A DNA stretch of 64,000 nucleotides from an uncultured Gemmatimonadales bacterium (GCA_963815325.1 CAWFGG010000001.1:304130-368129); one strand, 5' to 3'. Positions 5,916 through 52,179 are shown, counted from the first letter of the stretch. Program-made: numbers and translations. The notes: generated by a model from the sequence alone, not told the origin.

Positions 5916-5957
5916 GGCTATCTCACTTTGTTGAGGTAAGCGCGTTCGGCTACCGGT

Positions 5958-6584: not shown

Positions 6585-6781
6585 TGACGCCCCTAGCGAG
6601 GGGGCGGGAGACGCGCGGGTTTCCGGCCTGGCTGCGGCATGCGGGGGGCTCCACCGTGACGAATACGTGGGTCGATGCTGACGGCTCCGGAGAGTATGCT
6701 CCGGTGCGGCGCGTCGGGCAAGATGTCGTCGCACGCGATTTCCTGACCGGTGGCGGGTCATTGCGATGATGCTCTGCGGCC

Positions 6782-7234: not shown

Positions 7235-7251
7235 ACGGACACGACCCGGAC

Positions 7252-7647: not shown

Positions 7648-7722
7648 CTGCTCAAGCTAGCGGCCGTTCGGGCTCGGAGCCACCCGGCCGGCGCCCACCA
7701 GCAGGTATTAGCTTTCGATCAT

Positions 7723-26339: not shown

Positions 26340-26424
26340 CAGCGTGGCGAGTATGCGCGGCGCAGTCCAGCCTCCACGTGGACCACGGCGCGGATTCGTT
26401 CCGCGGCGCCGGGAAGCCTGTTTG

Positions 26425-27570
26425 CTAAGGAGACGCAGGGGGGGAGTTCTCTGACGCGGCCCCAGCAGGGGATGCCGGTTCGGGACCAGCCTTGGCGGCT
26501 GCCGTATCCGCGGGCACGACTTGTTGACGGTCAACCGGGATGGGCGTCACCGCCATTCCGGGCTGGAGGCGGACCTGTCCGCCGACCACCACTTGCTCTC
26601 CGGCAGCCACGCCTGAACGGATCTCGACAAAGCCAGGGATTCGGACTCCCAACTCAACCGCGCGTCGCTCCGCCTTGCTGCTGTCGTCGATCACCCAGAT
26701 CACCGGCCCTGCCTCGAGCGGGACGATCGCCTCCTCGGGAACGATCGTCGCTGCGGGGCGCACGTCGGTGGCCAGCCGGACTTCAATGAACATGCCGGGC
26801 TGGAGATCTCCCTCACGGTTCGGAACGCGGGCTTTCACCAGGATCGTCCGCGAGGGAAGGGTGACGATGGGATCGACGAACTCGACGGTACCCCGGAAAT
26901 CACGCCCCGAAATGGCCGCTACCCGGAAGGCGACCTCCTGCCCGAGGGCGAGTTCCGAGGCGTAGCGCTCGGGAACCTGAAACACGGCACGCTGGGGGTG
27001 AACGGTCTGGAGCGTGACCAACCCGGTGGAGCTGGTGACGTAATCGCCCAGGCTCACTTGCCGCGAGCCGGCGACACCGCCAAAGGGAGCGCGGACGACG
27101 GTCCGGTCGAGGCGGACCTTGAGAAGTTCGTACTGCGCCTCGCTACTGCGGGCGGTGGCTTCCGCCTGTTCCAGATCGGCCTGCGAGGCGGCATTCTGTG
27201 CGATGAGAGTGCGAGTCCGTTCCAAGGCCTGGCGGCTGAGATCTCGCTCGGCTTCGGCCCGAGCGACCTGGGCGACCAGCTCCGCGTCGTCGACCTTGAA
27301 CAGTGGCGCCCCGGCCCGAACGTATCTGCCCTCCCGAAAGAGGATACCGGTGATTCGTCCGTCGATGTCCGGCCGGAGGATGATCGATTGCACGGCTTCG
27401 ATCTGACCCGTTGTCTGAATCGCGTCGATCACCGTGTCCACCTGCGCCCGAGCGACCTCCACTGGCGCCGCAAATCCGCCGCCGCCAAACCCGCCATCTT
27501 CGGCTTGCCCATCGCCACAACCCCATGCGGCGACAACCGCGAGCCCGAATACCAGACCTCGTGTGACCAT
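26425..27570 (-). CDS. Efflux RND periplasmic adaptor (membrane fusion protein)
   Basis: Lipoprotein-like N-terminus (LAVVAAWGCG). It has coiled-coil and beta-barrel MFP architecture (VDTVIDAIQTTGQIEAVQSIILRPDIDGRI...; ...VFQVPERY...). Confidence 0.9.
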   Translation of the reverse strand: MVTRGLVFGLAVVAAWGCGDGQAEDGGFGGGGFAAPVEVARAQVDTVIDAIQTTGQIEAVQSIILRPDIDGRITGILFREGRYVRAGAPLFKVDDAELVAQVARAEAERDLSRQALERTRTLIAQNAASQADLEQAEATARSSEAQYELLKVRLDRTVVRAPFGGVAGSRQVSLGDYVTSSTGLVTLQTVHPQRAVFQVPERYASELALGQEVAFRVAAISGRDFRGTVEFVDPIVTLPSRTILVKARVPNREGDLQPGMFIEVRLATDVRPAATIVPEEAIVPLEAGPVIWVIDDSSKAERRAVELGVRIPGFVEIRSGVAAGEQVVVGGQVRLQPGMAVTPIPVDRQQVVPADTAAAKAGPEPASPAGAASENSPPASP

Positions 27571-28847
27571 TAGTCCTTCCCGGTGAAGAGGCGCCGGCCG
27601 AGAATCGCTTCCAGTCCCGCCAGTGCCAATCGTGTTGCCGTGCGGGACTGTACCAGCCCCGCCTGGGCGTCGCTCAAGTTGACCTGCGCTTCGAGGAGAT
27701 CGAGAATGTCGGTTGCGCCGCTCCGATAGCGTGCCTGCTGAACACGATAATTCTCTTCGGCAACGACAACGGCCTGCGCGGCGAGGTCGGTCGCCGCCCG
27801 CGACGTCAGGTACTGGTCATAGGCCTGGGTTACGTCGGGTCGGGCCGAGCGTTCCAGGTCCTCACGAATGGCACGGGCGACGTCGCGGTTGACGCGTGCC
27901 TGCGTAATACCGATCTCGCGTCTTCCTCCGTCCCAGATCGGCAGGCTCACCCCGATCGAGAGGGTCGAGCGCTTGGTTGCGTTCGGGAAGACTTTCACGT
28001 CGAAGGCGGAGGTGTTCGCAGTCAGCCCGATTTGCGGCAACCATGCCGAACGTTGGGCCCAGAGCTGTGCTCCGGCACGCTGCTCACTCGCCCGGGCAAC
28101 CCGATAGCTCGGACCCTGTTCCAGGGCTTCGGCGACGGCCTCTTCGAGGGTCAGCGGGAGATCGGGCGCGGGCCCGGACGGCAGTGGCGCGGCATCCACC
28201 GGCCCTGCCGCCCCAATCAGGCTGCCCAGGGTCAGTCGCGACACACGGAGCCGGCTTTCCTCGCGCAGCAGGTTGACGCGAGCCCGGGTGAGTTCCAGCA
28301 AGAGCCGGAGCGAATCGGTCTGGACGGCCGCCCCGGACAATACCCGGGCCCGCGCAACGACCAACTGTTCCTCGGCGCGGGCCACCCGTTGCCGAGCGAC
28401 TTCGGTGAGCTCCCTGTTCGAGACCAGATCATAGTAGGCCGACTCGGTGAGGAGCGCAGCCGCGAAGCGCGCCTCCAGTTCCCCCGCTCGAGCGCCGGTC
28501 AGCTGGGCCTTGGCGGCCGCGAGATCGGCAAATTTCCGTCCGCCCGCAAAGAGTTCGTATTGGCCGGTCAACTGGGCAAAGGCAAACGTCTTCGATGCCG
28601 CGCCCGTCCCGATATTGAAACTCGGCGAGGAGGAGACCTGGTAGCTCCCCTGCACCGTGATCGAAGGAAGGATGAAGGCCAGGTAGGCTGCGCGCCGACC
28701 CCACGCCGCGTTATCGATCTGTCCGAGGGCCGCAACGTAGTTGGGATCGAGCTGGGTCGCGCGTTCCAAGGCTTCGGCAAGGGTGACGCGAGGCATGGTA
28801 TCCGTCGCGGCAACCTGCACCGCCAGGAACAATCCGAGCAGCATCAT
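27570..28847 (-). CDS. TolC-family outer membrane efflux protein
   Basis: Two-repeat OEP pattern (LTLAEALERATQLDPNY...; LTLEEAVAEALEQGPSYRVA...), 425 aa. It overlaps the RND stop by 4 nt. Confidence 0.88.
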   Translation of the reverse strand: MMLLGLFLAVQVAATDTMPRVTLAEALERATQLDPNYVAALGQIDNAAWGRRAAYLAFILPSITVQGSYQVSSSPSFNIGTGAASKTFAFAQLTGQYELFAGGRKFADLAAAKAQLTGARAGELEARFAAALLTESAYYDLVSNRELTEVARQRVARAEEQLVVARARVLSGAAVQTDSLRLLLELTRARVNLLREESRLRVSRLTLGSLIGAAGPVDAAPLPSGPAPDLPLTLEEAVAEALEQGPSYRVARASEQRAGAQLWAQRSAWLPQIGLTANTSAFDVKVFPNATKRSTLSIGVSLPIWDGGRREIGITQARVNRDVARAIREDLERSARPDVTQAYDQYLTSRAATDLAAQAVVVAEENYRVQQARYRSGATDILDLLEAQVNLSDAQAGLVQSRTATRLALAGLEAILGRRLFTGKD

Positions 28848-31800
28848 GCTTCAACCGTGGCGCGCGGGATTCGGCCTCGCCACCCTCCGACAGCCAGCCG
28901 GATCTGGAGCGCATCCAACAGGACGTAGACCACCGGCACCAGGAAGAGCGTCAGGACCGTCGAGACCATGATGCCCCCGACGATGACCAGGCCGAGTGGA
29001 ATCCTGCTCTCGGAGCCGGCGCTGAGCCCCAACGCGATTGGCATGGCCCCTGCTACTGTTGATGTAGCCGTCATCAGGATCGGCCGGAGACGGATGCGAC
29101 CCGCCTCGAGCACGGCATCGATGGTGTCCAGTCCTTTGGCCTTCAATTGATTGGCATATTCCACCAACAGGATCGAGTTCTTCGACGCCAACCCGATCAG
29201 GAGGATCATCCCGATTTGGCTGTAGAGATTGAGCGTGGACTGCATGATGAAGAGCGTCACCAGCGCACCGCTTACTGCTAATGGCACCGCGAGGAGTACG
29301 GTGAACGGGTGCACCAGCGACTCGAATTGGGCGGCCAGGACCATGTAGACCACGATGAGTGCCAGCACAAACGCGAAATACAACGCCGTTCCGCTGTCTT
29401 CCAGCTCTCGGGATTCCCCGGCGAGTGCGGTGGAGCTACCGGGTGGTAGCACTTCAGCCGCGGCTGCACGGAGGGAATCAATCGCCGAGCCAAGCACCAG
29501 GCCGGGCGCAAGGCTCGCGTCGAGCGTGTACGAGCGCACCCGATTGTAGTGCAGCAGCGCCGACGGACCGATATTCTCGGTCACGGTGGCGACTTGATCG
29601 AGATTGATCAACCCGCCGTCGCGCCCGCGGACATAGAGGCCGCTCATGTCGCTCGGCGTGGCTCGCTCCTCCGGGCGCATCTGTACCACGACATCGTAGA
29701 GCTTGTTGTCGCGGGTAAACGTGCTGACCCGCCGACCCCCGAGCATGGTTTCGAGCGTCGCCCCGATAGACTCCACCGAGACGCCGAGATCTTCGGCCCG
29801 ATCGCGTTGGTAGCTGACGGTGAGTTCCGGTTTGTTCACCTTGAGGTCGATGTCGAGGTTGATCAATCCGGGAATCTGGGCTGCCCGCGCCTGGAAGCGG
29901 TCCATGCCGGCCACCAACGAATCGAAGTTCGGGTGTTGCACCACGAACTGCACCGGCTTCCCGAAGCCTCCGATGGGCGAGGGGGCGAAGGCAAATGCCT
30001 GAACCCCCGGGATCCCGAAATATTGAGGGAAGAGCTCTCCGATCACGTCCTGGGTGGAGCGACTGCGCTCCGACCAGTCGGTGAGCTGTGCGAAGACAAT
30101 GCCTTGGTTGACCGGAACGAAGCCGCCCACGATGCTGAAGTACGACTCGACGTCGGCGGTCCTGGCCAGAATCGCCTCGACCTGTCGTTGGTATTGATCT
30201 GTGAACTCGACCGTGGACCCTTCCGGCGCCTGAATGGCGCTGAGGAACCACCCACGATCCTCGTCCGGGACGAACTCCCGTTCGAGCGCCTGGAAGGTGA
30301 CCACCGCCACCACGAGAGCGCCGACGGCACCACCAAGGACGACGCCGCGATGCCGCACTGCCCAGGTGAGCGCCTTGGCGTAGCCCGTCGCCAGCCCTAC
30401 AAACCCGCGCTCGAACGCCTGAAACACCGGCCCGTGCGACTTGGGGACCCGCAAGATTTTGGCGCACAGCATGGGTGTCAGGCTGAGCGCGACGAAGCTC
30501 GACACGATCACCGCACCAGCCAACGCCACGCCGAACTCGTTGAACAGCCGACCGGTCGTGCCCTGGAGGAAGGCCAACGGCGAGAACACCGCCACGAGCG
30601 CGACCGTGGTGGCAATCACGGCGAATGCGATTTCCCGCGTGCCGTCGCGTGCGGCGATTGCCGGGTCTTCGACCAGCTCTTCCTGGTGGCGGTAGGCGTT
30701 CTCGAGCACAACGATGGCGTCATCCACCACGAGGCCGATCGCGAGAATCAGCGCCAGTAAGGTAAAGGTATTGATCGAGAATCCGAGGAAGAACATGACC
30801 GCGAAGGCCGCAATGATCGACACGGGAATCGCGAGACCCGGAATCAGCGTGGCGCGGACATTGCGCAGTGCCAGGAAGATGATGACGACGACCAGAAACG
30901 CCGCGAGCCCGAGCGTCAGCAGCGTCTCGCGGATGGATCGCTTGACATAAATCGAGGAATCGAACGCCGCTTCGATCTCGACACCGGGCGGAAGTGCTGC
31001 CTGCACCTCGGGCAGGCCCGCACGAATGTTCTCGGCCACGTCGAGCAGATTCGCCTTGGACTGACGGACCACGCCGATACCGATAGCGGAAACGCCCTTG
31101 TATCGCAGGGTACTCCGCTCCTCTCGGGCGGCCAGCTCGACTTTCGCCAGATCGATCAGCTTCACCAACTGGCCGCCCTGGTTGGCCACCGTGATGTTGC
31201 CGAACTGTTCGGGCGTCTTGAGTTCGCCCAAGGAGCGAACGGTGAACTCCCGAGTCTCGGATTCGATTCTGCCGGCCGGGATTTCCACGTTCCGGGTCCG
31301 GATGGCGTTCTCGACGTCTTGGACCGTCAGCCCGCGCGCCGCGAGCTCCTTCGGCGAGAGCCAGATTCGCATGGAGTATTGCCGCTGCCCGGCAATGAAG
31401 ACCCGCCCGACCCCGGTAATGGTTTGCAGTCGGGTCTTCACGATCCGGTCTGCGATGTCGGAGAGCTGCATGCGGGTGTAGTTGGCCCCAGAAAGCGCTA
31501 TCCAATAGAAGGGCTGCGCGTCGGCGTCCTGCTTGGCCACCACGGGCTCGCCGACCTCTCGGGGCAGCCGGCCCCGCACCCGGGAGACCTTGTCGCGCAC
31601 GTCCTGCGCGGCGCTCTCGATGTCCCGACCCAGGTTGAATTCGAGGGTGATGTTGCTGCTTTGCTCCGCGCTCGAGCTGGTGAGGGTACGAAGGCCCTCA
31701 ACGGTGCTCAATTCCTCTTCGAGAATGTCCGTCACGGCCGATTCGACCACCCGTGGATTGGCACCGGGCAAGAAGGTCGACACCGAGATGATGGGCGGGT

Positions 31801-31921
31801 CGATATCGGGAAACTCCCGTACCTGAAGTCGGGTGTACCCAATGACGCCAAAAAGCACGAGTGCCGCGCTCATCATCGTAGCCAGCACGGGGCGCTCGAT
31901 CGACGTATCGGACAGTTTCAT
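28844..31921 (-). CDS. RND efflux permease (AcrB/HAE-type), intact
   Basis: 1025 aa, with MKLSDTSIERPVLATMMSAALVLFG, GLVVDDAIVVLENAYRH, and a duplicated 6-TM plus large-loop topology. Confidence 0.93.
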   Translation of the reverse strand: MKLSDTSIERPVLATMMSAALVLFGVIGYTRLQVREFPDIDPPIISVSTFLPGANPRVVESAVTDILEEELSTVEGLRTLTSSSAEQSSNITLEFNLGRDIESAAQDVRDKVSRVRGRLPREVGEPVVAKQDADAQPFYWIALSGANYTRMQLSDIADRIVKTRLQTITGVGRVFIAGQRQYSMRIWLSPKELAARGLTVQDVENAIRTRNVEIPAGRIESETREFTVRSLGELKTPEQFGNITVANQGGQLVKLIDLAKVELAAREERSTLRYKGVSAIGIGVVRQSKANLLDVAENIRAGLPEVQAALPPGVEIEAAFDSSIYVKRSIRETLLTLGLAAFLVVVIIFLALRNVRATLIPGLAIPVSIIAAFAVMFFLGFSINTFTLLALILAIGLVVDDAIVVLENAYRHQEELVEDPAIAARDGTREIAFAVIATTVALVAVFSPLAFLQGTTGRLFNEFGVALAGAVIVSSFVALSLTPMLCAKILRVPKSHGPVFQAFERGFVGLATGYAKALTWAVRHRGVVLGGAVGALVVAVVTFQALEREFVPDEDRGWFLSAIQAPEGSTVEFTDQYQRQVEAILARTADVESYFSIVGGFVPVNQGIVFAQLTDWSERSRSTQDVIGELFPQYFGIPGVQAFAFAPSPIGGFGKPVQFVVQHPNFDSLVAGMDRFQARAAQIPGLINLDIDLKVNKPELTVSYQRDRAEDLGVSVESIGATLETMLGGRRVSTFTRDNKLYDVVVQMRPEERATPSDMSGLYVRGRDGGLINLDQVATVTENIGPSALLHYNRVRSYTLDASLAPGLVLGSAIDSLRAAAAEVLPPGSSTALAGESRELEDSGTALYFAFVLALIVVYMVLAAQFESLVHPFTVLLAVPLAVSGALVTLFIMQSTLNLYSQIGMILLIGLASKNSILLVEYANQLKAKGLDTIDAVLEAGRIRLRPILMTATSTVAGAMPIALGLSAGSESRIPLGLVIVGGIMVSTVLTLFLVPVVYVLLDALQIRLAVGGWRGRIPRATVEA

Positions 31922-36840: not shown

Positions 36841-39800
36841 CAGGACGTACCTCCTTCTCTGCGGCGAAGCTCCCAGTACAACAGCGGCACGACCACCATC
36901 GTGAGCAAGGTTGCGACGATGGCGCCGCTGATCAGCGCCACGGCCAGACCCTGAAAGATCGGATCGAGCACCATGACCAGGCCCCCGATCACCACCGCCG
37001 CGGCCGTCAAGGCAATCGGCCGGAACCGTACGGCGCCCGCCTCCACCACGGCCTCGGCCAACGGGCGGCCGCGCTCTTCCGCCAGCTGGATGAAATCGAC
37101 CAGCAGGATCGAGTTTCGAACGATGATGCCGGCGAGCGCGATCATCCCGATCATCGAGGTGGCCGTGAAGAACGCCCCGGTCACCGCATGTCCTGGCAGG
37201 ATTCCCACCAGCGTCAGTGGAATGGGCGCCATGATGACCAACGGAATCTTGAACGACTGGAACCACCCGACCACCAGCACGTAGATCAGGATCAAGACCG
37301 CCGCGAAGGCGATCCCGAGATCGCGAAAGACTTCGATGGTGATGTGCCACTCGCCGTCCCACTTCATCGCCGTCTCATCCAGCTGCTCGGGGAGAACGGC
37401 GTTGTAGCGCCGGATCTCAGCCCCGGCCACCCGCACCGTATCCAGGGCCCGGTTCATGTTCAGGATCGCGTAGACCGGTGACTCGACCGTGCCGGCTACA
37501 TCGCCGGTTACGTATATCACCGGGCGCAGGTTCTTCCGATAACGCGACGGCTCGCGCACGGTGGAGTCGACGGTGACGAATCGCGCCAGCGGTTGCGAAC
37601 CGGAGGCCGTGGCCACCGGGGTGGCCAGCAAGGCCTGCACCGAGGACCGCTGGGGAAGCGGGAACCTCGTCACGATGGGCACCGGCTCGCGAGCCGGCGA
37701 TTCTCGCACGAGGCCCGCGACCGATCCCGAGAGTGCCAGCGTGAGCGTGTGGGTCAGTTGTTCGACGCTGGCGCCGGCTTGCGCTGCGCGGACCCGGTCC
37801 ACGCGTGAACATCCACCCTGCCTGCGGCGCTTCGAGCGACCAATCGACATCGACCACACCGGCCGCGTGCTCGAAGACATCCTTGACGCGCCGGGCGGCC
37901 TCGATACGGGTGGAGTCGTCCGCCGCATAGATCTCGGCAACCAACGTCGAAAACACCGGCGGCCCCGGCGGAATTTCGGCAATCTTGGCGCTGGCCCGGT
38001 AGCGCCGCGCGATTGAGTCGATCCCCGGCCGCACCGCGACCGCGATGTCATGGCTCTGTCGCTTCCGATCGTCCTTCGGGCGCAAGTTCACCTGGAGGTC
38101 CACGCCGTTCGGGCTTTGGCGGAGGAAGTAGTGCCGCACGAGGCCGTTGAAGTTGAAGGGCGCCGCCGTGCCGGCGTACACCTGGGTGTTTTCAACTTCC
38201 GGTGTCTCCCCGACGTAGGCCGCCACTTCAGTGCCGAGCGCATTGGCGGTTTCGAGTGTCGCGCCCTCCGGAAGATCCAACACCACCTGGAACTCACTCT
38301 TGTTGTCGAACGGCAGCATCTTGACCTTGACCACCTTGATCGCCAGGAGCCCCATGGAGAGCACCAGGAGTGTGGCCACGGCGCCGTAGAACAGATGGCG
38401 GCGGCGCGGATCGTCCATGAGAGGCTGCATGATCCGGGCATACCGTTGGCCGAATTGCGACCGTTCTTCGGGCTCGTGGGCCACATCCGTCTTGGGGTGT
38501 GTCACCGGCACGTGGCCGCGCAGGAGGCGCAGTGCCAGATACGGAGTGATCATGAACGCCACGGCGAGCGAGGCCAGCATCGCCGCCGAGGCGCCGACCG
38601 GGATGGGGCGCATGTACGGCCCCATCAAACCCGAGACGAAGGCCATCGGGAGAATCGCGGCGATCACGGTGAAGGTCGCGAGGATGGTCGGATTCCCGAC
38701 CTCGTCCACCCCTTCCACGGCGGCCACCTCCGGTGTGCGTCCACCCATCTGGAGATGGCGGTAGATGTTCTCGACGACCACAATCGCGTCGTCGACCAGG
38801 ATGCCGATCGAGAAAATCAGAGCGAACAGCGTGATCCGGTTGAGGGTGTAGCCCAGGGCGTAGTAGACGAAGAGGGTCAGGCCCAACGTCACCGGAACCG
38901 CCACGAGCACGATGATCGCTTCCCGCCAACCCAGGAAGATGCCGATGAGCACGGTGACCGACAGCGTCGCGATCAACAGGTGGAGGATGAGTTCGTTGGC
39001 CTTCTCGCTCGCCGTTTCCCCGTAGTCGCGTGTCACTTCGAGTCCGACGTCGGCGGGAATCAACCGAGAGCTGGCTGCCTCGACGCGCTCGAGGACTGCA
39101 TGCGCGATGGCCGTGGCATTGGCGCCCGGTCGCTTGGCGATCGCAAGCGTGACGGCATGTTCCACGACACCGTCACGTCCCCGATGAGATACGTAGTGCT
39201 CGACTTCGCCGAAGGTGTCGTCGAGTGTGGCCACGTTTCCCAGATAGACCGGCCCGGCTCCCCGGCTGCTCACGACGACCCGCGCGAGATCCTGGACGCT
39301 CCGAATCGGGGCGCCGATCTGCACCCGGAACACGGCGTTGTCCGAGGCAAACTCGCCGGCCGTCAGGCGCGCGTTGGTGCCGCGAAGCGCCGCCGCTACT
39401 TCGCCCGGCGTGATCCCGTTCGATGCCAGGCGCGCCGGGTCGAGTATCACACGCACGGTGCGCGGTCTGCCGCCAACCACGAACGTCTCCGCCACGTCCG
39501 GCAGCGTCCGGACTTCATCATCGAGATGCGTGGCGATGAGCCGCAGTTCATCGGACCCGTAGCGCGTCGAGTGTAGGGTCAGCGTGAGGATCGGGACGTC
39601 ATCGATGCTGTGCGGCTTGACCAGAGGCGGAGACGCTCCGGGTGGAGCTTCGTCCATGGCCGCGGCGAGCTTCGCGTGGACCTTGCTGACGCTCCGATCC
39701 TGATCCTCGCCTACCGTGAAGCGCACCGTGACCAGCGTCATGCCGTCCCCGGCCATCGCGTAGACGTACTCGACCCCCGGATATTTCCCACATCAGCTTT

Positions 39801-40012
39801 TCGATCGGGCGCGTCAGCAAGTTCTCCACTTCCGATGGACTCGCTCCCGGGAAGGCCGCCATGACGTCGATCATGGGGACCGAGATTTGCGGCTCTTCCT
39901 CGCGCGGCGTGCCGAGCAGCGCGAGGGCGCCCACCGCCAAGGAGGCCAGCATGACCAGCGGGGTCAGTTTCGACCGGAGGAAGGCCTGTGCAACCCTGCC
40001 CGCGATGCCCAT
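36840..40012 (-). pseudogene. RND efflux permease interrupted by two frameshifts
   Basis: Three consecutive ORFs carry contiguous RND sequence. ORF 39599..40012 reads [22 protein letters not shown]...[14 protein letters not shown]...[12 protein letters not shown] 37417..39756 is preceded in its frame by YPGVEYVYA, then reads [13 protein letters not shown]...ILVDDAIVVVENIYRH...VDVDWSLEAPQAGWMFT. ORF 36840..38051 reads VDRVRAAQAGASVEQL...IVRNSILLVDF...LLYWELRRRE. The frame switches lie at about 39779-39785 and 37800-37810. Confidence 0.85.
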
Positions 40013-40015
40013 CGT

Positions 40016-41053
40016 TCAGCCCGCCTCTCCGGGTGGGGTCGGGAGCACGATGCGGTCACCAGGTTCGAGGCCGGAAAGGACCTCGACCCAATCACCGAAG
40101 GTTTCACCCAGCCGTACCCATCGAAGTTCAGTCTCTTCACCGCGACGAACGTACACTCCGTTCAGGGCCCCCTCGCGTACCAGCGCCGCCCGGGGCACGG
40201 CCAGCGCGCGACGCTCTCCTTGGACGAGGGCAAGCGTTGCGGCGCTCCCACTCAAGTACTTTTGGTTCGGATTGGTAACGAGTGCGTTGACGGTGTAGAG
40301 GTTCGCACCGGGACCCGGGACCACACCCTCGATTTTGAGGTCGACTGGCTCTCCCTCCAACGTCCCTCGTATGGCCGCGCCGCGGGCAAGTCCGCGCACG
40401 GCACGCGGCGGCGCCATCACACTCACGCGAAGCCGGGATGCATTCTCGAGCGCTACCAGCGGTGTCCCGGGGGCGGCAAACGCACCAGGATCAACAAACC
40501 GTCTGGTAACGACCCCGCCGAATGGTGCGCGGATCTCTGCGTAGTGCACCGCGGCAGCGACCTCGGCTGCGGCCGCCTGGGCCACCGCCACCCCAGCCGA
40601 GGCGCGACTGAGCTGGGTCTCGGCGGCGTCGAGCTGTGCTTTGGCCGCCGCGCTGTCGGCAAAGAGCGCCCGGATACGCGTCGCATGAAGCTCCGCCTCG
40701 CCGCGGACGGCTTCAGCTTCCCGCAGGCCCGCAGCCACTCTGGCGCGCTTGGCGTCCAGATCCCGGGCATCGATCTCGAGCAGCAACTGACCCGCCCGGA
40801 CCACATCGCCCTCCTGTACCAGGACCCGGGTCACGGCCCCCATGAGCTTGGTGCTGAGCGTCGCTTGCTGGATTGGTTCTGCCGTGCCCGAGGCCTCGAA
40901 CACATCCTCAAGCACGGTATCCGATACCACGTGCGTCGCACCGGTAGCAGTGGCGCCCGCCGGTCTGCTCGTTTGGTTGTCATGCCCACGCGAGCACGCT
41001 CCGACGGCGGCGAGGCTCGCGATGAAAATGAGGGGATTCGACCAGCGACTCAT
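40016..41053 (-). CDS. Efflux RND periplasmic adaptor (MFP)
   Basis: Lipoprotein-like N-terminus (FIASLAAVGAC). It has MFP lipoyl, coiled-coil and barrel segments (GTAEPIQQATLSTKLMGAVTRVLVQEGDVVRAGQLLLEID...). Confidence 0.88.
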   Translation of the reverse strand: MSRWSNPLIFIASLAAVGACSRGHDNQTSRPAGATATGATHVVSDTVLEDVFEASGTAEPIQQATLSTKLMGAVTRVLVQEGDVVRAGQLLLEIDARDLDAKRARVAAGLREAEAVRGEAELHATRIRALFADSAAAKAQLDAAETQLSRASAGVAVAQAAAAEVAAAVHYAEIRAPFGGVVTRRFVDPGAFAAPGTPLVALENASRLRVSVMAPPRAVRGLARGAAIRGTLEGEPVDLKIEGVVPGPGANLYTVNALVTNPNQKYLSGSAATLALVQGERRALAVPRAALVREGALNGVYVRRGEETELRWVRLGETFGDWVEVLSGLEPGDRIVLPTPPGEAG

Positions 41054-41057
41054 TGTG

Positions 41058-42425
41058 TCACTCCTCTAGGGCGGTCAGGCTCGCGACGCTGAGCCCGAAT
41101 GCTTTGCGTCGATCGGCTTCGCCAACGATGAGTTGATACTGGACGAGCGACAGTCCCAATTGCGAACTCGTCTCCGTGGCCTGGGCGTCGAGCAGTTCAA
41201 CCACCGTCGCGAGCCCTCCTTCATACTTTCGACTCACAATCCGGTGGGCCTCCCGGCTCTGTTCGACCGCACGCTCGGCGATGTCCAGTCGGGTGAGCGC
41301 CACCTCGACATCGGTTTGGCGGGCTGCCATCTCCACGCGCGCTCGGTGCGTCGCCGCCTCGGCCATGGCTCGCGCCGAAGCTTCCCGGCCCTTGGCCGCC
41401 TGCATGTCGCCGATCTCCGAGGCCCCCGCAAAGGGCGTCCAGACCGCCATGACCCCGACGGTCCAGCTCTTGTCGCCGGCGAAGAACCCGTCGGCGTACC
41501 AATCGTACCGGGCGAACGAGTTGACCCTCGGCACATAGCGGGACCGGGCTCGCCACACGTCGCGCCGGCTGGCATCCCAGGCATGGGTAGCTGCCGCCAC
41601 GTCCTGACGTGCCTGACGCGTTAACGAATCGGGCCGGATCACGGCTCGGATGCGAGTGGGAGAAGGGAGGCTCTCGGGTATCGTGGCGGCGGCGCTGGCT
41701 GGGTCGCCGAGCAACAACGCCAACTCCCGATGCGCGTTGGCGCTCTCTCCTCGAGCCATGGCCAGTTGCGCGTCGACTTCGCCGGCACGCACCGAGGCGA
41801 GCAGCGCATCGGACCGGGTAACCATCCCGTTCGTCACCATCAACTCAGCTTGTCTGGTATGTTCGTGCGCGGCGCGGGAGGCGGCTTCCAATGTCTTGAC
41901 TTGAAATCCCGCCAGGATTGACCCGAAATAAGCGCGCACGACGTCGGCGCGCACCGACTCCCGGGTCCACCGCGCATTTGCGGCACTCGCCGCGGCGGCA
42001 CTCGACGCCGCAGCCCGACCCAGCCACGCATCGGCATTGAAGAGCGGTTGTTCCACCACCAGCGCCCCGGCGTACAGGGATTGAGTCGCCGGATTATTCA
42101 GGGCGGCGGGGTCAAATGCCGCTGGCGTCACGGCGCGCTGACGGAGAATCGTTCCAAACGCGCCGAGCGGATCGGTCGTCCGGGTGTAGCCACCCTCGGC
42201 ACGGAGGGTCGGCAATACCCCCGCAAGGGCCGCGGTCTTGTCTCCGGAGCGGACCTGGGTTTCCCCCGCTGCGATACGGTTGGAATACGCCAGCTGGTCG
42301 GCCCGATCCAGCGCCTCGGCCAGCGAAAGGCTCTGGGCGGCCGCACCGGACACGGCACCTACGGCCAGGGTTGTCCCGAGCACTGTGCCGTAAACCATTG
42401 TCTTTATGTGTCTTGCGCTTCGCAT
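41058..42425 (-). CDS. TolC-family outer membrane efflux protein
   Basis: Signal peptide plus SLSLAEALDRADQLAYSNRIAAGE, and a second repeat with the OEP pattern. 455 aa. Confidence 0.85.
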   Translation of the reverse strand: MRSARHIKTMVYGTVLGTTLAVGAVSGAAAQSLSLAEALDRADQLAYSNRIAAGETQVRSGDKTAALAGVLPTLRAEGGYTRTTDPLGAFGTILRQRAVTPAAFDPAALNNPATQSLYAGALVVEQPLFNADAWLGRAAASSAAAASAANARWTRESVRADVVRAYFGSILAGFQVKTLEAASRAAHEHTRQAELMVTNGMVTRSDALLASVRAGEVDAQLAMARGESANAHRELALLLGDPASAAATIPESLPSPTRIRAVIRPDSLTRQARQDVAAATHAWDASRRDVWRARSRYVPRVNSFARYDWYADGFFAGDKSWTVGVMAVWTPFAGASEIGDMQAAKGREASARAMAEAATHRARVEMAARQTDVEVALTRLDIAERAVEQSREAHRIVSRKYEGGLATVVELLDAQATETSSQLGLSLVQYQLIVGEADRRKAFGLSVASLTALEE

Positions 42426-43103: not shown

Positions 43104-45018
43104 GTGAGCGCGCTCCTTGGCGCATTCCCGGAATATGGATCGCCACCGCCGAGTGACGCGGCGCTCAGCCCCGCGCTCGATGCGCTTCGCGTACGAGGCC
43201 GCGATCGGGAAGAGCTGCATCGTGAGGACGCGGCATTGCTCGGAGTGCTCCGCCACGACTGGGAGCTTGCACCGTGGATCTCGGGCAATGTCCTACTCGC
43301 CCGGGACCAGGAATCCGGTGTCGTCGTGGCCGCGGATGCGGCCCTGTACTATCGCGACGATTTGCTGCGCGCCATGGGGCAGGCCGGGATTCGCAGCCGG
43401 GGCAGTAACCCCGCCGAGCTGATCCTTGCCGCATACCTGGCATGGGGCGATTCGTGCCCCGACGCGACTCGAGGGTGATTTCGCCTTCATTCTCTGGGAC
43501 GGGCGCCAGAGGCGGGTGTTGGCTGCCAGAGATTTCGGTGGGAAACGGCCGCTGTTTCACGCCGAGTTTGGCGGGACGCTCTTTCTCGCCTCCACCATCC
43601 CGGCCCTCCTCGCCGCACCGGGCGCGAGCCGGGAACTCGATTGGACGGTGATTGCCGAGGCGGCCGCGGCGCTGACCAACTCACCGGACGAGACGGCCTT
43701 TGGCGCAGTTCGCCGTCTCCCTGCCGGATCGACGCTCGTGTACGAGCCAGGTTCGGCGCCACGAGTCCGGCGGCATTGGTGGCCGCCCACCTTCCGCACT
43801 TGGGGAGAACACAACTCGAAAGACGCGGCCGCGGAGCTCAGACGCACGCTCGAACGGGCGGTCGATGAGCGCATGGCAGGCGAAGGCGTAACGGCGTGTT
43901 TCCTCTCGGGCGGGTACGACTCCCCGGCAGTTTACGCAGCGGGACGCCACCTATTGGCAAACAGCGGAGCCCGGCGCGAACTCCGTGCTATCTCGATGAG
44001 TTTTCCGCCCGGCGACTCCGGCCGGGAAGACGAGCTCATCGAGCAGATCGTCGGACACTGGAACGACGCGACGCGTTGGATCCAGAGCACGGACGTTCCC
44101 TTCTGCGAGGATCCGGAGGAGCACGCGCGTCAACGCGCCGAGCCATACCCGCACCTCTTCGAAACCTTCAACCGCGTCGCCACCCGCGCTGCCGTTGGCC
44201 AAGGTGCACGGGTTGTGCTGGACGGGAGCGGCGGCGACCAGCTCTTTGCCGTCGGGGCGAATGTCCTGTCAGATCTGCTGCGTGGCGGGCATTGGCTCTG
44301 GTTGGCTTCGGATTGGAAGGCCCTGGGTGGAGGGAGCTGGCGAGACTTCTTCAAGGTGGCGGTCCAGCCCCGGATGGGACCGAAACTGCTTCGAGCGGCA
44401 ACCTGGCTCCGCGGCGGCCGCCCGCTGGCCGATGTCGGGTTCGTTCGCGACATCCCGCCCTGGTTCTCGAAGACGTTCGTCGAGCGCCACGGCCTTCGAA
44501 CCCGCGAGCACGATCGCCAACCGGCCCGCGGCACCATGAGTTGGTCCGCCTACGAAGCCTTGTGGTACCTGACCACCCCGGCGTTCCCTCGCATGGCCGA
44601 ATACGTCGCGAGCTTTGCCTTGGAGGAGGGCGCCGAGTACCGCTCCCCGCTCCTCGACAGGCGAATCGTCGAATTGGCGGCCACCCGCCCGGCATCGGAC
44701 CGGCGCCGGGGCACCGAGACCAAGCTACTGCTTCGCCACGCCATGGAAGGACTCCTACCGACATCCGTCCTCGCTGGGCGGCCGCACAAGACCGGGATGC
44801 CGGTGGACTACATGCGGGGATCCGCCCGGGCCCTCCTAGGCGGGCCGTTGCGTCCGCTGCTCCGAGATTCAGCCCTGGCAGAGGCCGGGATCGTCGAGCC
44901 GGAGGCCTTGCAGAGGGCAGTCGAGCGCTGTGTGGCTGGCCAGGACGACGGGCAGGCCGTTGGGCTCTACCTGACCCTCCAGGCCGAACTCTGGGCGCGT
45001 CAGCAGATTGGGGGGTGA
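43104..45018 (+). pseudogene. Asparagine synthetase B-family protein without the N-terminal Cys (lasso-peptide cyclase-like), one frameshift
   Basis: ORF 43104..43478 reads MSALLGAF...ELILAAYLAWGDSC. ORF 43426..45018 reads RLEGDFAFILWDGRQRRVLAARDFGGKRPLF...ACFLSGGYDSPAV (PP-loop SGGxDS). Together they make one AsnB-like protein if one base is removed near 43455-43470. Residue 2 is Ser, not the glutaminase Cys. Confidence 0.8.
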
Positions 45019-45201
45019 AGACCCGCGTGGGGAGGGGTGTCCCCGGTTTGGGACATCGCCCACCCCGGGTTGCCGCCAGCCGTTCGCCCCCCCCAACCCC
45101 CCCTTGCGGACGGGGCTTTCGTACGGTACAGTTTCTGCAGCTAAGAAAGCTGCGATGGGGTTGTGGTCATGTAGTCCGGCCCAATGTCTCAGAGGTGGTG
45201 T

Positions 45202-45384
45202 ATGTACGCCAAGCCTGTGTTGGAGCGATTCGGCACATTTCGGGATCTCACCCAGATGCCGCCGCCACAAGGAAAGAAGGATCCAGGTGCGGACCTGACG
45301 ATGCGATCAACTGTGAGTCCCATGCCGGTCCGGTCGCCGCTGCATGCGGTGGCAGTCCGGAACGGCGGCGGTCGCACGAGCTGA
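45202..45384 (+). CDS. Candidate RiPP (lasso-type) precursor peptide
   Basis: ATG preceded by GAGGTGG. The N-terminus MYAKPVLERFGTFRDLTQ fits the lasso leader pattern YxxPxLxxxGxxxxLTx with Thr at -2. A hairpin terminator lies 52 nt downstream. It sits between the AsnB-like gene and the ABC transporter genes. Confidence 0.5.
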   Translation: MYAKPVLERFGTFRDLTQMPPPQGKKDPGADLTMRSTVSPMPVRSPLHAVAVRNGGGRTS

Positions 45385-45435
45385 TTCCGCTGGGAGGTTC
45401 TTGACCTTCCGCCGCACAATTACCGAACTGTGAAC

Positions 45436-45480
45436 CGCCCGCCCTCTGAGAAATCTCCGAGGGCGGGCGTCCCTTTGGGT
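45436..45480 (+). terminator. Intrinsic-terminator-like hairpin after the small peptide ORF
   Basis: A perfect 11-bp stem, CGCCCGCCCTC (45436-45446) with GAGGGCGGGCG (45459-45469), a 12-nt loop, then TCCCTTTGGGT. Confidence 0.55.
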
Positions 45481-45572
45481 ATAGGGGCCGCCATCGGCCC
45501 GAGATCCTCGAGCCTGTTCAATCCTCGACGCTGGCAAGTGAGCCCTCCAGGCACCCACGGTACCAAGCCCCA

Positions 45573-46614
45573 GACCCGGCATTCGTTTTCCTCCGGGGGC
45601 TCACCAAGTCCTACCCGATTCACCGCCAATGGCGCGAGATACTGCGCCGCCCGTTCACCGAACAGTGGACGGCCGCGCTCGAGGGAGTGGACTTAGCCGT
45701 TGAGCGTGGCGAGTTCTTCGGCCTCCTGGGACCGAATGGGGCCGGCAAGACCACACTGTTCAAGGTGCTGTCCACCCTCATCACCCCAGACTCCGGTCAG
45801 GCCCAGGTGGACGGCCTCGACGTGGTGCGCAGACGCCGCCCAGGTGCGGAAGATCCTGTCGCCCGTGATCCCGGATGAACGCAGTCTCTTGTGGCGCCTC
45901 TCGGCGCGCGAGAACCTGAATCTCTTTGCCGGCCTGTACGGCTACAGCGGCAACGGCCGTGCGGCTCGGGTCAACGATCTCCTGGACATCGTGGGCCTGG
46001 AGGAAGCGGGCAACAAGATGGTGGGGCAGTTCTCGTCCGGCATGAAGCAGCGACTGCTCATCGCGCGGGCGCTCCTCCCCGAGCCGCGGCTGCTGCTGCT
46101 CGACGAACCGACCCGGAGCCTCGATCCGGTGTCGGCCGAGCGCTTCCGCAGGTTCCTCCGCGACGAGATCGGTGGGCGCCAGGGTTGCACGATCCTCCTC
46201 GCCACGCACAACGCCGAGGAAGCGCTCGATTTGTGCACCCGTGTGGCCGTGCTCGATCGGGGGAGGGTCCGGGCGGTTGGGACGCCGGAGGCGCTCGCGC
46301 TCCGCGTGGCGGAGCAACGCTTCCGGATCTACACGCGGACGCCAGACGCGCCGGCGTTCGGGGAGTTGCTCCACCGGGGGTTGGCGCAGAGTGTCAGCAT
46401 GACGGCAACGGCCGACGGCCAGTGGTCGGTAGTAGAAGTAGAGATTTCCAGAGGCAATGAGGGATGTGAAGCCGTTCTTGCCTACCTCGCCCGCCAGGGC
46501 GTTGCGGTAGCCCGGCTCGAGCGCATCCGACCCACCCTGGCCCAGGTGATCGAACACGTGGTGGCCCAGCATCCGCCGGTCGCACCATCATCAGCCGAGG
46601 CCCCTCGATCATGA
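45573..46614 (+). pseudogene. ABC transporter ATP-binding protein (ABC-2 subfamily) with a frameshift and no obvious start codon
   Basis: The frame of ORF 45687..45878 reads ...[66 protein letters not shown]...QVDGLDVV (Walker A). The frame of ORF 45700..46614 continues [19 protein letters not shown]...FSSGMKQRLLIARAL...LLLLDEPTRSLD (signature, Walker B). The switch lies near 45825-45835. There is no in-frame ATG/GTG/TTG upstream of LRGLTKSY. Confidence 0.8.
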
Positions 46615-47411
46615 GGACGATCCTGGCGTTCCTGCGGGCCAATTGGCTCACCGCGACGAGCTACCGGATCGACCTCGTCATCTCGCTCATTTCGCTGGCC
46701 GCCGCCGCCGTCCCGCTCTACTTCGTGTCGGGTGCACTGCAGCCCTTGATGGCGGACTCGATCCGTACCGAAGGCGGGCAATATTTCGGGTTCGCGCTGG
46801 TGGGCATCGTGACCTACAGCTTCCTGGGTGTTGCGGTGAACAGCATCCCCACCGGCTTGGGGAAGAGCATCAGCTCGGGCACCATCGAGGCATTCCTGGT
46901 CGCGCCGGCATCCCTGCCTTCGATTCTCGCCGCGTTCGCCTCCTACGATCTGATATGGACCACCCTGCGGGCCGTGGTCTTTCTCGGCGTGGGCGCGGTT
47001 CTTGGCGCCCGCTTTGCCCCGTCGGGGCTGCCGGCAGCCCTGTTCATCCTGGCTCTAACCGTGCTGGCCTACGTGCCCATCGGCCTCATGGCGGCGGCAA
47101 TGGTCATGGCATTCCGAACGACGGGGCCGCTTCCCAAGGCGGTGTTCGCAGCCTCGGCGCTGCTCGGTGGCGTGTACTATCCCACGACCGTCATCCCGTC
47201 ATGGATCGAGCTGGTGTCGCGCATCGTGCCCCTCACCTACGGGCTCCGCGCCATCCGGCGCACCCTGCTCGAAGGATGGTCACTCGGCCAGGTGGGAGGG
47301 GACGTATTGACCCTGATCGGGATCAGCGCCGTGCTGTTCGCCGTGGCCATTCCGTTGTTCCTGAAGGCACTTGGGACGGCACGGCGCCGCGGCACGCTCG
47401 CTCACCCATGA
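46611..47411 (+). CDS. ABC-2 type transporter permease
   Basis: A six-TM profile typical of ABC-2 permeases (MRTILAFLRANWLTATSYRIDLVISLISL...). There is an ATGA overlap with the ATPase stop. Confidence 0.85.
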   Translation: MRTILAFLRANWLTATSYRIDLVISLISLAAAAVPLYFVSGALQPLMADSIRTEGGQYFGFALVGIVTYSFLGVAVNSIPTGLGKSISSGTIEAFLVAPASLPSILAAFASYDLIWTTLRAVVFLGVGAVLGARFAPSGLPAALFILALTVLAYVPIGLMAAAMVMAFRTTGPLPKAVFAASALLGGVYYPTTVIPSWIELVSRIVPLTYGLRAIRRTLLEGWSLGQVGGDVLTLIGISAVLFAVAIPLFLKALGTARRRGTLAHP

Positions 47412-47417
47412 GGGCTG

Positions 47418-49307
<1,890 letters not shown>

Positions 49308-49571: not shown

Positions 49572-52179
49572 ATGCGCAGCTCTCGTTGGCAAGGCCTGGT
49601 CCGCTGGCGGGCTTCCCTCGTATTCCTAGGAGTGTGCGCCGCCAGCCTGGCATTCGCGACCTCGGCCCGAGCCCAAGCTACCGGCACCGTCACGGGCTCC
49701 GTGACCCGAGCCGAGGATGGAATTGCGCTCCTCGGCGTGACGGTGTTGGTGCAGGGAACCAACCTCCAGACGTCCACCAACGCGGAAGGTCGGTACACGC
49801 TCGCACGAGTGCCAGGTGGGGCACAGGTCATTGTGTTTCGCTGGCTGGGCTACGGCGGGGTCGATCAGCCGGTCACGGTTTCGGCCAACCAGGCCGCGGT
49901 AGTGAACGCGGCGCTGACCCGGGCCCCCATCGCGCTCGGCGAACTGACGGTCGAGGCAGCCTCCCGGGCGCCGGAGCGGGTGGTCGACGCGCCGGCCGCG
50001 GTATCGGTGGTCACGCCGCAGGTACTCCGGTCGGCGTCACTCACCGGCCAAGCCGGAATCGCGCTTCAACGTCTCCCCGGTGTGGACGTAGTCCAGAGCG
50101 GGGTCAATGATTTCAACATCAATGCCCGCGGGCTCAACTCGTCGCTGAACCGACGGGTGCTGGTCCTCTTGGACGGCCGTGACCTGGCGATCGCGTTCCT
50201 TGGCGCCCAGGAGTGGAACGGGCTCCCGGTACCGCTCGAGGACCTGGATCGGGTCGAGATGGCGCGAGGCCCGGGCTCAGCACTGTATGGTGCCAACGCG
50301 TTCAGCGGCGTAGTCAACATGATCACGCCGGACGCGCGCCAAGTCTTGGGCACCAAGGTCTCATTGGGCGGTGGCGAGCTGGCCACCTTCCGGGGCGACC
50401 TCCGGCACGCCGGCATACTCGGTGAGGGCCGCGTCGGGTACCGCGTGAACGCGGGCTTCTACCAGAGCGAGAGCTTCACCCGTCGCGAACGGGCGTTGGT
50501 GACTGAGCAAGGAATACGCAGCCGCGTCGACGACCTCCGAGGCTCTCCGTCCAGCACCGTTTCCGGGGTTTGAAGTCGTCCCGCTAGATGGTCAGACGAC
50601 GGCAACTCCTTTTGGTCAACCGGTGCCGCCACCGGTGAACCGGACGATCTGCGCAACATCTACGGCTCGGCCCGCCTCGATTACTACGCCGACAACGGCT
50701 CGGTTGTCTCGGTGGATGGTGGGGCCAGCCGGGTCGAGAACGAGGTCTTCGTGACCGGCATCGGGCGAGTACAGGTCAAGAAGGGCACCAAGCCTTGGGC
50801 CCGCGTTGCCTGGGCCGCCGAGCGATTCAACATTTCGGCGTGGTACACCGGACGGAACACCAACGAGGATCAGGTGTCGCTCGCGAGCGGCGCCGCGCTC
50901 TTGGAAACCTCGGCGATCTTCCACTGTCGAGGGCCAGACCAACCACAACTTCCTGGAGGACCGCGGCCGCGTGGTGGTTGGCGCATCGTTCCGGAACTAC
51001 AACGTCGATACTGACAGCACCCTCATGGCCCTGAGCGACGATGATCGGAGTGACAAGACCTATTCGGTCTATGGGCAAGTCGAGTTCAAACTGATTCCCG
51101 AACTCAAGGCGGTTGCGGCGCTTCGCTTTGACGACGCAGATCTGCACGACGCCCAGTACTCACCCAAGGGCGCGCTGGTGTTCAGCCCGACGCCGGATCA
51201 TTCCATCCGGGTCACCTACAATCAGGCGTTTCAGGTTCCCAACTATTCCGAGTTCTTCCTGCGCGCCGCCGCAGGGGCTCCGGCCAACTTCTCGCAGCTC
51301 GAGAGCGGGCCTCCGCGGCCTCGCCACATTGGGGCCGCGGCTCTAACCGGCGTCCCGGTGGGTCAGCTCTACGTCCGATCGTCCCCGGTGCAGGAATGGC
51401 TCAGCGACTGTGCCGGTCCTGGCGCCTCGGCAATGCCGGCCTCGAAGTGGAGAAGGTCAAGGGCTGGGAGATCGGATATAAGGGCAACATCACCGATCGC
51501 GCCTACGTAACGGTCGATCTCTTTCAGAGCAAGATCGAGAACTTCGTGACCGATCTCCTGCGCTGGCGTCGAGAACCCGACATATCGACCGCTCCTGGAC
51601 AGCACCTGCAGCGCTCCGGACAGCATCCGGCGCGGCGGCCGATGCGCGACAGTCGCGTCGCCGCCGGAAGGTCCCGGCGACCCTGAGGCTACCCAGCTAC
51701 CGGACGATGCGAGCGGCAATTGTCAGTTTCGTACACCAACGCGGTGACGGTGAAGCAGCGCGGCGTCGAGCTCGGCTTCGGCATTCAACTCATCGACGAA
51801 GTCCGCTTCGACGGGTCGTACACCTTCTTCGACACGAATTTCTTCCAGGACAACATCAAGGGCCTGGCGGCGGGAGACGTGCTGCAACCCAACACGCCCA
51901 AGCACAAGGCCAACTTGTCGCTCGCCTATAGCGGGCTCCAGGGCATCGACGCCGAGGTGGCCCTCCGGATGATCGATGGGTACGACGTGGGCCGCCGGCA
52001 TCTTCCAGGGCTATGTGCCGTCGAGTGAGACGGTCAACCTGAGCGCCGGCTACCGGATCAGTAACCACTTCCGAGTCCAGGCCGCCGTCACCAACCTGTT
52101 CGATCAGGAGCGCTACCACCTCTATGGTGGCTCGGTTATCGGCCGGCGCATTCTCGGTGGGGTGACAACCTACTTCTAA
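49572..52179 (+). pseudogene. TonB-dependent receptor (carboxypeptidase-regulatory-like N-domain, plug and barrel) with at least seven frame disruptions
   Basis: ORF 49572..50573 gives the signal peptide, the CarbopepD_reg-like domain (GTVTGSVTRAEDGIALLGVTVLVQGTNLQTSTNAEGRYTLARVP) and the plug (LPGVDVVQSG...VLVLLDGRD...ARGPGSALYGANAFSGVVNMIT). Barrel segments continue in alternating frames (ORFs 50712..51014, 50806..51510, 51396..51686, 51720..52028, 51976..52179). The sequence ends in the canonical ...GRRILGGVTTYF. Confidence 0.85.

Follow-up and report, generated by a model that had tools for sequence, protein, structure and literature searches.

A probable lasso-peptide operon of the kinase-associated type, lacking B1, B2 and kinase genes, in an uncultured Gemmatimonadales bacterium

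Lasso peptide biosynthesis is usually defined by a trio of genes, the precursor A, the leader-processing B (B1 and B2 where it is split) and the cyclase C. The rules applied in genome mining require the B protease, and clusters without it are therefore systematically missed. Here, a locus of this kind is described at positions 43104-47411 of a 64-kb (64,000 nt) stretch of DNA, hereafter the window, from an uncultured Gemmatimonadales bacterium (GCA_963815325.1, CAWFGG010000001.1:304130-368129). It consists of four co-directional elements, namely a cyclase homologue (C), a precursor gene (A), a hairpin and a pair of exporter genes (D1 and D2), with the gene for Hsp15 upstream and thiC, on the opposite strand, downstream. 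A previous sequence-only reading of the window had placed these elements and both neighbours at the same positions and had interpreted them as a lasso-type pathway for a peptide made by ribosomes and modified after translation (RiPP), with cyclase, precursor and ABC-2 exporter and with neither a RiPP recognition element (RRE) nor a protease; the present analysis supports this interpretation. Judged from sequence comparison, the locus is quite probably a real lasso-peptide operon in reduced form, of the kinase-associated (paeninodin/pseudomycoidin) type, with frameshifts that are most likely consensus errors.

For pseudomycoidin, encoded by the psm cluster of Bacillus pseudomycoides, A and C suffice in vivo without B1 and B2 in two hosts (Zyubko et al. 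2019, PMC6993621), and a natural cluster without B genes, encoding C, A and the kinase K, is known from Stanieria cyanosphaera (PMC6993621). Both resemble the window in belonging to the kinase-associated family, in the precursor ending in Ser and in the AsnB-type cyclase. The psm cluster still encodes B1, B2, K and N, and that of Stanieria keeps K, whereas the window locus and its closest relatives, referred to as the window clade, have none of B1, B2 and K. The window clade further differs from both in the split ABC-2 exporter, in a much longer core, of ~39 amino acids (aa) with two Cys, in a spacer of 2-6 residues between the T-x end of the leader and a conserved Gly and in its phylum, Gemmatimonadota.

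The phosphorylated clusters of the paeninodin type have the order A-K-C-B1-B2-D (Zhu et al. 2016, as cited in PMC13381572), and the Bsf cluster serves as the paeninodin-type comparison (PMC10368454). These clusters share with the window family the leader form YxxPxL...T, the (here predicted) Gly1-Asp8 ring and the conserved C-terminal Ser, the residue phosphorylated in clusters of this type, and with most relatives of the window cyclase the gene for an HprK-like kinase. Unlike them, the window locus has no kinase, RRE or B2 and therefore lacks local genes for phosphorylation and for canonical removal of the leader.

The nearest sister is a Gemmatimonadota subfamily of the arrangement B1-C-A-K-D1-D2 (e.g., L032/P0009 and L040-L048; L numbers denote related loci), with ~50% cyclase identity. 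Its core, GKSDPG[FW]DL...C...AAPGSAAAC..GRS, is nearly the same as that of the window clade, GKKDPGADL..C..AAPGSHAAC..RTS, and the two are alike in the presence of the ABC-2 D1/D2 pair and the absence of B2 from the locus. In the sister, however, B1 directly precedes C, and K lies between A and D1; the window clade has neither gene. The leader of the sister runs with its T-Q end straight into Gly1, where the window clade has the spacer MPPPQ.

Lasso clusters of Gemmatimonadota have so far been reported as antiSMASH counts only (PMC11316326). The parts and the family of the window locus are known, and its precursor is named by NCBI's own model; what sets it apart from described systems is the phylum and a conserved cluster that is free of B1, B2 and kinase, yet selected. 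The clade would be a natural test bed for the question, raised by the work on pseudomycoidin, of whether some lasso cyclases can work without B proteins and of what then removes the leader, and the C-A pair may offer a small two-gene system for engineering.

Genes and conserved elements of the operon

Genes of the window were called from greedy open reading frames (ORFs) together with Pfam and homology; a finder based on GC at third codon positions was too noisy for this sequence of 66% GC. The cyclase homologue C (43104..45018, +), defined from ORFs with repair, NF033535 and Pfam, starts with GTG at 43104 and reads through only after removing one base at 43462. The repaired protein has 637 aa with the N-terminus M-S-A-L-L-G, and its residue 2 is Ser, where AsnB has the catalytic Cys of the glutaminase. 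The PP-loop SGGYDS, at 43906-43923, lies within FLSGGYDSPAV, and Pfam recognizes GATase_7 and Asn_synthase. Among the NCBIfam models, the one for the lasso peptide isopeptide bond-forming cyclase, NF033535, scores highest (221.9 bits), followed by the true asparagine synthase model TIGR01536 (161 bits) and the extracellular polysaccharide (EPS) amidotransferase model TIGR03108 (159 bits), while NF033561 gives 115.5 bits against a curated cutoff of 300; NF033535 and NF033561 are narrow "exception/subfamily" models. The cyclases of the clade retain 39/46 family-conserved columns (those conserved to 90% or more among the remaining cyclases of the family, n = 46), including the whole PP-loop S268-G-G-x-D272-S273. 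A sequence search of the PDB with C gave distant AsnB-type matches alone (7ylz, 1ct9) and no close solved lasso cyclase. By these matches, C is a predicted ATP-dependent PP-loop enzyme of the lasso-cyclase lineage, in agreement with the cyclase homologue with Ser2 and a preserved PP-loop proposed before, for which ORF repair, Pfam and the best NCBIfam model concur.

An ordinary or EPS-associated asparagine synthetase or amidotransferase, followed by a small ORF that is there by chance, would also match TIGR01536 and TIGR03108, and every match of C falls under its curated cutoff. Against this, the lasso cyclase model outscores both alternatives, Ser2 replaces the catalytic Cys, and the homologues of C are flanked by B1, B2 and K; C does not group with the housekeeping or EPS-associated enzymes. 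The small ORF exceeds the curated cutoff of a lasso-leader model, and it is conserved next to the cyclase across phyla and under purifying selection. The asparagine synthetase with a chance ORF is thus exceedingly improbable and, on these comparisons, effectively refuted.

The precursor A (45202..45384, +), identified with NF033521 and by alignment with L001, L002, L034, L035 and L037, adjoins C directly downstream, as it does in most related loci. It has 60 codons from ATG 45202, preceded by a ribosome binding site (RBS, AGAGGTGG) at 45191, and begins with the leader MYAKPVLERFGTFRDLTQ, which has the canonical lasso form YxxPxLxxxGxxxxxT. On NF033521 (lasso_leader_L3; cutoff 19) it reaches 22.3 bits, close to the intact peptide of L001 (22.4 bits), and this bears out the lasso-leader ORF seen by the sequence-only reading. 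The window, translated in six frames, has a single occurrence of the motif Y..P.[LIVM]...G.....T, compared with 0.14 on average over 100 triplet shuffles. The leader is followed by the spacer MPPPQ and then by the conserved ring block GKKDPGAD. Precursors of the clade have the form MYAKPVLERFGTFRDLTQ-MPPP[QR]-GKKDPGAD[LF][TA]SALNCESHAAPGSHAACGGS...GRTS, with the spacer QQ in place of MPPPQ in L037, and intact relatives encode ...LTSALNCESHAAPGSHAACGGSPGTGGGRTS. In the form of the intact relatives, the core is long (~39 aa), contains two Cys and ends in Ser; the window copy ends in ...GGGRTS, and the C-terminal Ser is common to all clade members. An alternative upstream start of A ("MSQRWC...") was rejected, because Met is missing at that place in L001 and the RBS precedes ATG 45202.

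D1 (45538..46614, +) encodes the ABC ATPase, of ~358 aa, of a DrrA-like ABC-2 system (TIGR01188 drrA, E = 3.3e-74; ABC_tran). Its start, GTG 45538, is found only once a deletion at 45571 is recognized, and the repaired translation is collinear with the 358-aa protein of L031. D2 (46611..47411, +) encodes an intact ABC-2 permease (ABC2_membrane) of 266 aa that is 99% identical to that of L002; the stop of D1 and the start of D2 overlap (ATGA, 46611-46614). With PF00005 in D1 and PF01061 in D2 above their gathering scores, the two genes are predicted to form an ABC-2 (DrrAB-like) transporter, the ATPase and permease pair having been named as such in the sequence-only reading.

Upstream of A, a non-coding block (45103..45179, +) is conserved in all six clade members and is kept even in L035 and L037, where the synonymous divergence (dS) exceeds 1. 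It comprises CTTGCGG (45103), a 17-nt spacer ending in GG, TACAGT (45127-45132) and then GGTTGTGGTCATGTAGTCCGG (45159-45179). A generic sigma-70 scan did not call this block, as its -35 hexamer matched 3/6 positions, and no Rfam family reached the gathering threshold on it; it may represent a promoter with an element of the 5' untranslated region. A small hairpin directly after the stop codon of A (45392..45410, +) comes from the window prediction and the consensus fold of six relatives, with weaker support than the second one (45436..45469, +). The latter, the strong hairpin noted before and defined here by folding and conservation, is GC-rich, with an 11-bp stem followed by TCCCTTTGG. It dominates a fold with a minimum free energy of -47.7 kcal/mol (z = -3.87; 0/200 shuffles fold as well), and its stem is kept in 6/6 relatives, with one compensatory pair. 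It fails the generic T-run rule for terminators, and it is likely to be a terminator or attenuator between the precursor and exporter genes. Three non-coding features, the block upstream of A, the RBS and the hairpin after A, are kept in the most divergent members of the clade.

The clade shares the gene order RND efflux pump operon, Hsp15, C, A, D1, D2, thiC, and the lasso ORFs of the relatives are intact. This layout is found in L001, L002/L031, L034, L035/L036 and L037, and L038/L039 agree with it (71-94% cyclase identity), so that Hsp15-C-A-D1-D2-thiC is intact in at least six related contigs. L001 and L002 are Gemmatimonadales metagenome-assembled genomes (MAGs) with DNA ~92% identical to the window and collinear over 12-21 kb; the cyclases of L034, L037 and L035/L036 are 88%, 73% and 71% identical to that of the window, respectively. 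The pairwise ratios of non-synonymous to synonymous substitution rates (dN/dS), in a set that includes pairs with dS > 1, are 0.13-0.26 for C, 0.15-0.23 for D1, 0.02-0.14 for D2 and 0.03-0.21 for A, similar to those of the comparison genes Hsp15 (0.16-0.32) and the membrane fusion protein (MFP, 0.08-0.16). The low dN/dS, together with the kept cyclase columns and the conserved non-coding features, indicates that the operon of the clade is maintained by purifying selection and is not decaying. The decaying cluster offered as an alternative in the sequence-only reading is accordingly disfavoured for the clade, with six relatives intact.

B1 (PqqD/RRE), B2 (protease) and K (HprK-like kinase) were searched with hidden Markov models (HMMs) built from relatives, on six-frame fragments of at least 20 aa and with the HMMER filters off (--max). 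None of the three was found in the 64-kb window or in the loci of L001, L002 and L034-L037, and the lack of B1 and B2 reported earlier for the locus therefore extends to the whole window. The same HMMs recover all three proteins in other related loci. A B2 fused to C or a hidden remnant was considered and rejected, since C is no longer than in the relatives with B genes, the gaps are short and the six-frame searches are empty. With ~80 nt between Hsp15 and C and ~150 nt between A and D1, there is no room for remnants of B genes.

The wider family was collected by a scan of one genome per species (30 loci), by a protein search with contig look-ups (L034, L037 and L035/L036) and by a metagenome scan (L038 and L039). 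Relatives at 36-50% cyclase identity are all Gemmatimonadota, with hundreds in public data, and are mostly arranged B1-B2-C-A-K-D1-D2. In these, the B1 beside the cyclase is of the PqqD type and matches lasso PqqD models, B2 (140-170 aa) scores 66-67 bits on NF033537 (cutoff 33), and K (~320 aa) has the HprK P-loop signature and matches models of HprK-related kinases. On this gene content, the family is assigned to the kinase-associated lasso type, of which paeninodin and pseudomycoidin are the typical members. In nearly all relatives, an ORF with the leader motif lies after the cyclase homologue; most precursors of the family end in Ser, and most carry Asp at core position 7-9. Distant loci with the same gene set occur in Acidobacteria, Chloroflexota, Sphingomonadales, Arenicella and Paenibacillus/Cohnella. 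Some related loci also have a nucleotidyltransferase-like gene.

Among the well-flanked metagenomic loci (flanks of 2 kb or more upstream and of 2.5 kb or more downstream, n = 36), B1, B2 and K occur together in 25/36, B1 and K without B2 in 5/36, and K without B1 and B2 in 6/36; K is thus present in 36/36, and the same ABC-2 pair is found in most. By comparison across the family, the ancestral arrangement is B1-B2-C-A-K-D1-D2, and B2 alone, or B1 together with B2, has been lost repeatedly within the family. This gives a reduction series from B1B2-C-A-K-D through B1-C-A-K-D and C-A-K-D to C-A-D. As it gives no match to B1, B2 or K and has no room for remnants, the window clade, which keeps C-A-D1-D2 alone, is the most reduced form of the series.

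In several loci of the arrangement B1-C-A-K-D1-D2 (L040, L044-L046, L048, L055, L032 and L010), B1 abuts the cyclase and no B2 is seen within the available flanks. A C-A-K-D1-D2 subfamily of Gemmatimonadota (L103, L105, L106, L107 and L116; also L087, L096, L102, L104 and L108) has short precursors of the form ...REVT-LAGGxVxAxDxxNPYHRYS, and no B1 or B2 was found within up to 8 kb upstream. L088 has a near-identical peptide, yet B1 and B2 lie ~1.3 kb upstream of its C.

Frameshifts in the window copy

Relative to L001 and L002, the window copy has a +1 indel in C (43462), indels of -1 (45301), -3 (45337) and -2 (45358) in A, a +1 indel in the intergenic region (45517), and indels of -1 (45571) and +1 (45831) in D1. 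The frameshifts in the cyclase and the ATPase reported by the sequence-only reading are both confirmed; there are, however, five frameshifting indels within 2.4 kb and not two, with two of them in A and a second one in the ATPase. That reading had also not included the kinase-associated family type, the missing kinase and the frameshifted neighbours outside the lasso locus.

In A, codons 34-52 (19 codons) are out of frame with respect to all relatives, and neither of the two conserved Cys is kept; the -1 and -2 indels together bring the frame back ahead of the C-terminal GGGRTS. The assembled peptide reads ...ADLT-MRSTVSPMPVRSPLHAVAV-RNGGGRTS, where the relatives have ...ADLT-SALNCESHAAPGSHAACGGSPG-TGGGRTS, and the DNA under the out-of-frame part is still clearly that of the conserved peptide. 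The codon changes specific to the window lineage (synonymous:non-synonymous) are 6:3 in C, 6:0 in D1 and 6:1 in D2, or 18:4 in total.

Two neighbouring genes outside the lasso locus are affected as well. The gene of the RND efflux pump (36843-40012, -), which encodes ~1056 aa in relatives, lies in three frames owing to two private +1 insertions, one at 39782 and one at 37803, with window-specific changes of 50 synonymous to 8 non-synonymous; these breaks look like assembly errors. A TonB-dependent receptor (49572-52176, +), of 859 aa in L002, is divided into at least four frame segments, with breaks at 50925, ~51400 and ~51987. Identity to L002 is 62-85% in the central part of the receptor and 90-98% in the neighbouring genes, and errors, real decay or divergence of loops may be the cause. 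The genes for HEAT, HSP20, lactamase-rhodanese, helix-turn-helix (HTH), MFP, outer membrane efflux (OEP), Hsp15, D2 and ThiC proteins and three downstream genes are intact near the locus, and the genes in the rest of the window have full-length Pfam matches.

L002/L031 (CAVOGR010000002.1, locus at 3738-8226) has private single-base indels of its own at the window-equivalent positions 36787, 37224, 38731 and 41336. As a result, the RND pump gene of this relative is called as three genes and its OEP is cut to 90 aa, with the lasso genes intact. From the Flye-style contig names of its MAG series, L002 is presumably a long-read assembly.

The window copy could alternatively be a real, recently inactivated pseudogene cluster, with the RND pump and TonB receptor genes decaying alongside. 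The five frameshifting indels within 2.4 kb would suit such a process, as would the previous loss of B1, B2 and K from the locus and the clustering of the indels in accessory genes at 36.8-52.2 kb, with no breaks in thiC or Hsp15 or in genes of the window outside this stretch; the lasso locus holds 5/10 indel events in the 21.8 kb aligned to relatives (binomial P = 0.03). On the other hand, the mostly synonymous changes of the window lineage, both in C, D1 and D2 and in the RND pump gene, argue against relaxed selection and point to assembly error rather than decay, which also disfavours the decaying-cluster alternative for the window copy itself. The proportion of indels, roughly one for every three substitutions, greatly exceeds that expected under neutral decay. 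The out-of-frame segment of A keeps the DNA of the conserved peptide between indels of -1 and -2 that restore the frame, the frameshifted non-lasso neighbours are a pointer to assembly error, and private frameshifts of a similar kind occur in other genes of the related, presumably long-read MAG L002. Recent inactivation is therefore unlikely, and the window frameshifts can with fair confidence be attributed to errors of the assembly consensus; they should not be read as biology before they are checked against reads.

Several observations weigh against a genuine operon with consensus errors. All of the ~10 detected frameshift-type indels fall within ~15 kb (36.8-52.2 kb), and genes elsewhere look intact; as the indels are not spread evenly, a local and real decay of accessory genes is possible, and their clustering may also reflect a local drop in coverage or strain mixing. 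The cyclase reaches 221.9 bits on NF033535, where the curated cutoff is 525, which makes it a divergent member of the family of that model. A core of 39 residues is long for a threaded lasso, and the YxxP motif of the leader, which binds the RRE, is perfectly conserved with no RRE nearby.

Leader removal and ring formation

The canonical lasso spacing places Y, P, L and T at -17, -14, -12 and -2 (PMC10368454). Cleavage of A after T-Q reproduces these positions; the core then starts with Met, and Asp is residue 9. Alignment with relatives gives instead Gly1...Asp8, with Thr at -7. Both readings put an Asp within core positions 7-9. The block GK[KS]D[PL]GxD is alignable across L032, L004, L037 and the window clade, and the segment between the T-x end of the leader and the conserved Gly varies, with MPPPQ in the window, QQ in L037 and an NALGW-type sequence in L042. 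Canonical cleavage would give Asp6 or Asp10 in L037 (QQGKKD...) and L042 (NALGWGCKPD...), outside the known ring sizes of 7-9, and the ring of the product is most simply that between Gly1 and Asp8 of the conserved block.

In the pathway proposed here, A would be transcribed from its own conserved upstream element, and the hairpin after A would attenuate read-through into D1/D2 and thereby set the ratio of precursor to exporter transcripts. The leader, together with the short spacer MPPPQ, would be removed by a factor with its gene outside the locus, which would be a housekeeping protease or a B1/B2 pair encoded at another place in the genome. Thereafter, C could adenylate the side chain of Asp and join it to the new N-terminus, forming a Gly1-Asp8 isopeptide ring, or a Met1-Asp9 ring if the cleavage takes place at the canonical T(-2) site. 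The two Cys of the core may form a disulfide in the tail, and D1D2 may export the product or protect the producer (immunity).

The leader-removing factor can be read in two ways. The C-A-D operon may, as a split or satellite cluster, depend on the B1 and B2, and perhaps the K, of another lasso cluster in the same genome, with cleavage at T(-2) and a Met1-Asp9 ring. Trans-acting B proteins fit the conserved RRE-binding motif, and the leader MYAKPVLERFGTFRDLTQ is identical in relatives at 86-94% identity, with conservative differences alone at 71-73%, despite many synonymous changes. A cut after TQ puts Y, P, L and T at their canonical positions, the C-terminal Ser is retained in the precursors of the clade, and two such clusters do occur together in one Parasphingorhabdus MAG (L015 and L017). 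Nonetheless, the canonical cut moves Asp to position 6 or 10 in L037 and L042, GK[KS]DPGxD aligns as Gly1-Asp8 in every member, and no second lasso cluster was seen within the ~20 kb inspected per genome. Processing by the B proteins of another cluster is thus possible, falling somewhat short of probable.

Alternatively, the C-A-D1D2 clade may encode a lasso or branched-cyclic pathway that is naturally independent of B1, B2 and kinase. A housekeeping protease would cut in the variable spacer (MPPPQ, QQ or NALGW), and the cyclase alone would fold the long, disulfide-bearing core of ~39 residues and close the Gly1-Asp8 ring. Such B-independent processing, a tentative and rather unlikely reading, is favoured by the spacer, by the repeated disappearance of B genes within the family and by the experiments with pseudomycoidin. 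If it were true, the loss of B2 (5/36) and of B1 and B2 (6/36) would point to a line of cyclases that can in general dispense with B proteins, and the spacer would have evolved between the old T-x end of the leader and Gly1.

Other features of the window

Directly upstream of thiC, a thiamine pyrophosphate (TPP) riboswitch (RF00059) is found at 49188-49291 (-), with 63.8 bits against a gathering score of 54.3. The start of thiC by homology is 49109 (563 aa) and not the longer ORF start at 49253. At ~36041, in the intergenic region between the lactamase-rhodanese and HTH regulator genes, there is a tandem repeat of a GAGTAGT-like heptamer, the copy number of which differs among the window, L001 and L002.

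Two large ORFs, at 24381-26534 (-) and 12401-14080 (-), have no Pfam match and encode 717 aa and 559 aa, respectively. The 559-aa ORF corresponds to a multi-pass membrane protein and adjoins the genes for a GT2 glycosyltransferase and a UDP-galactopyranose mutase. Additionally, the window has two separate RND efflux operons (OEP-MFP-RND), at 26425-31921 (-) and 36843-42398 (-), the proteins of which are mutually 25-30% identical.

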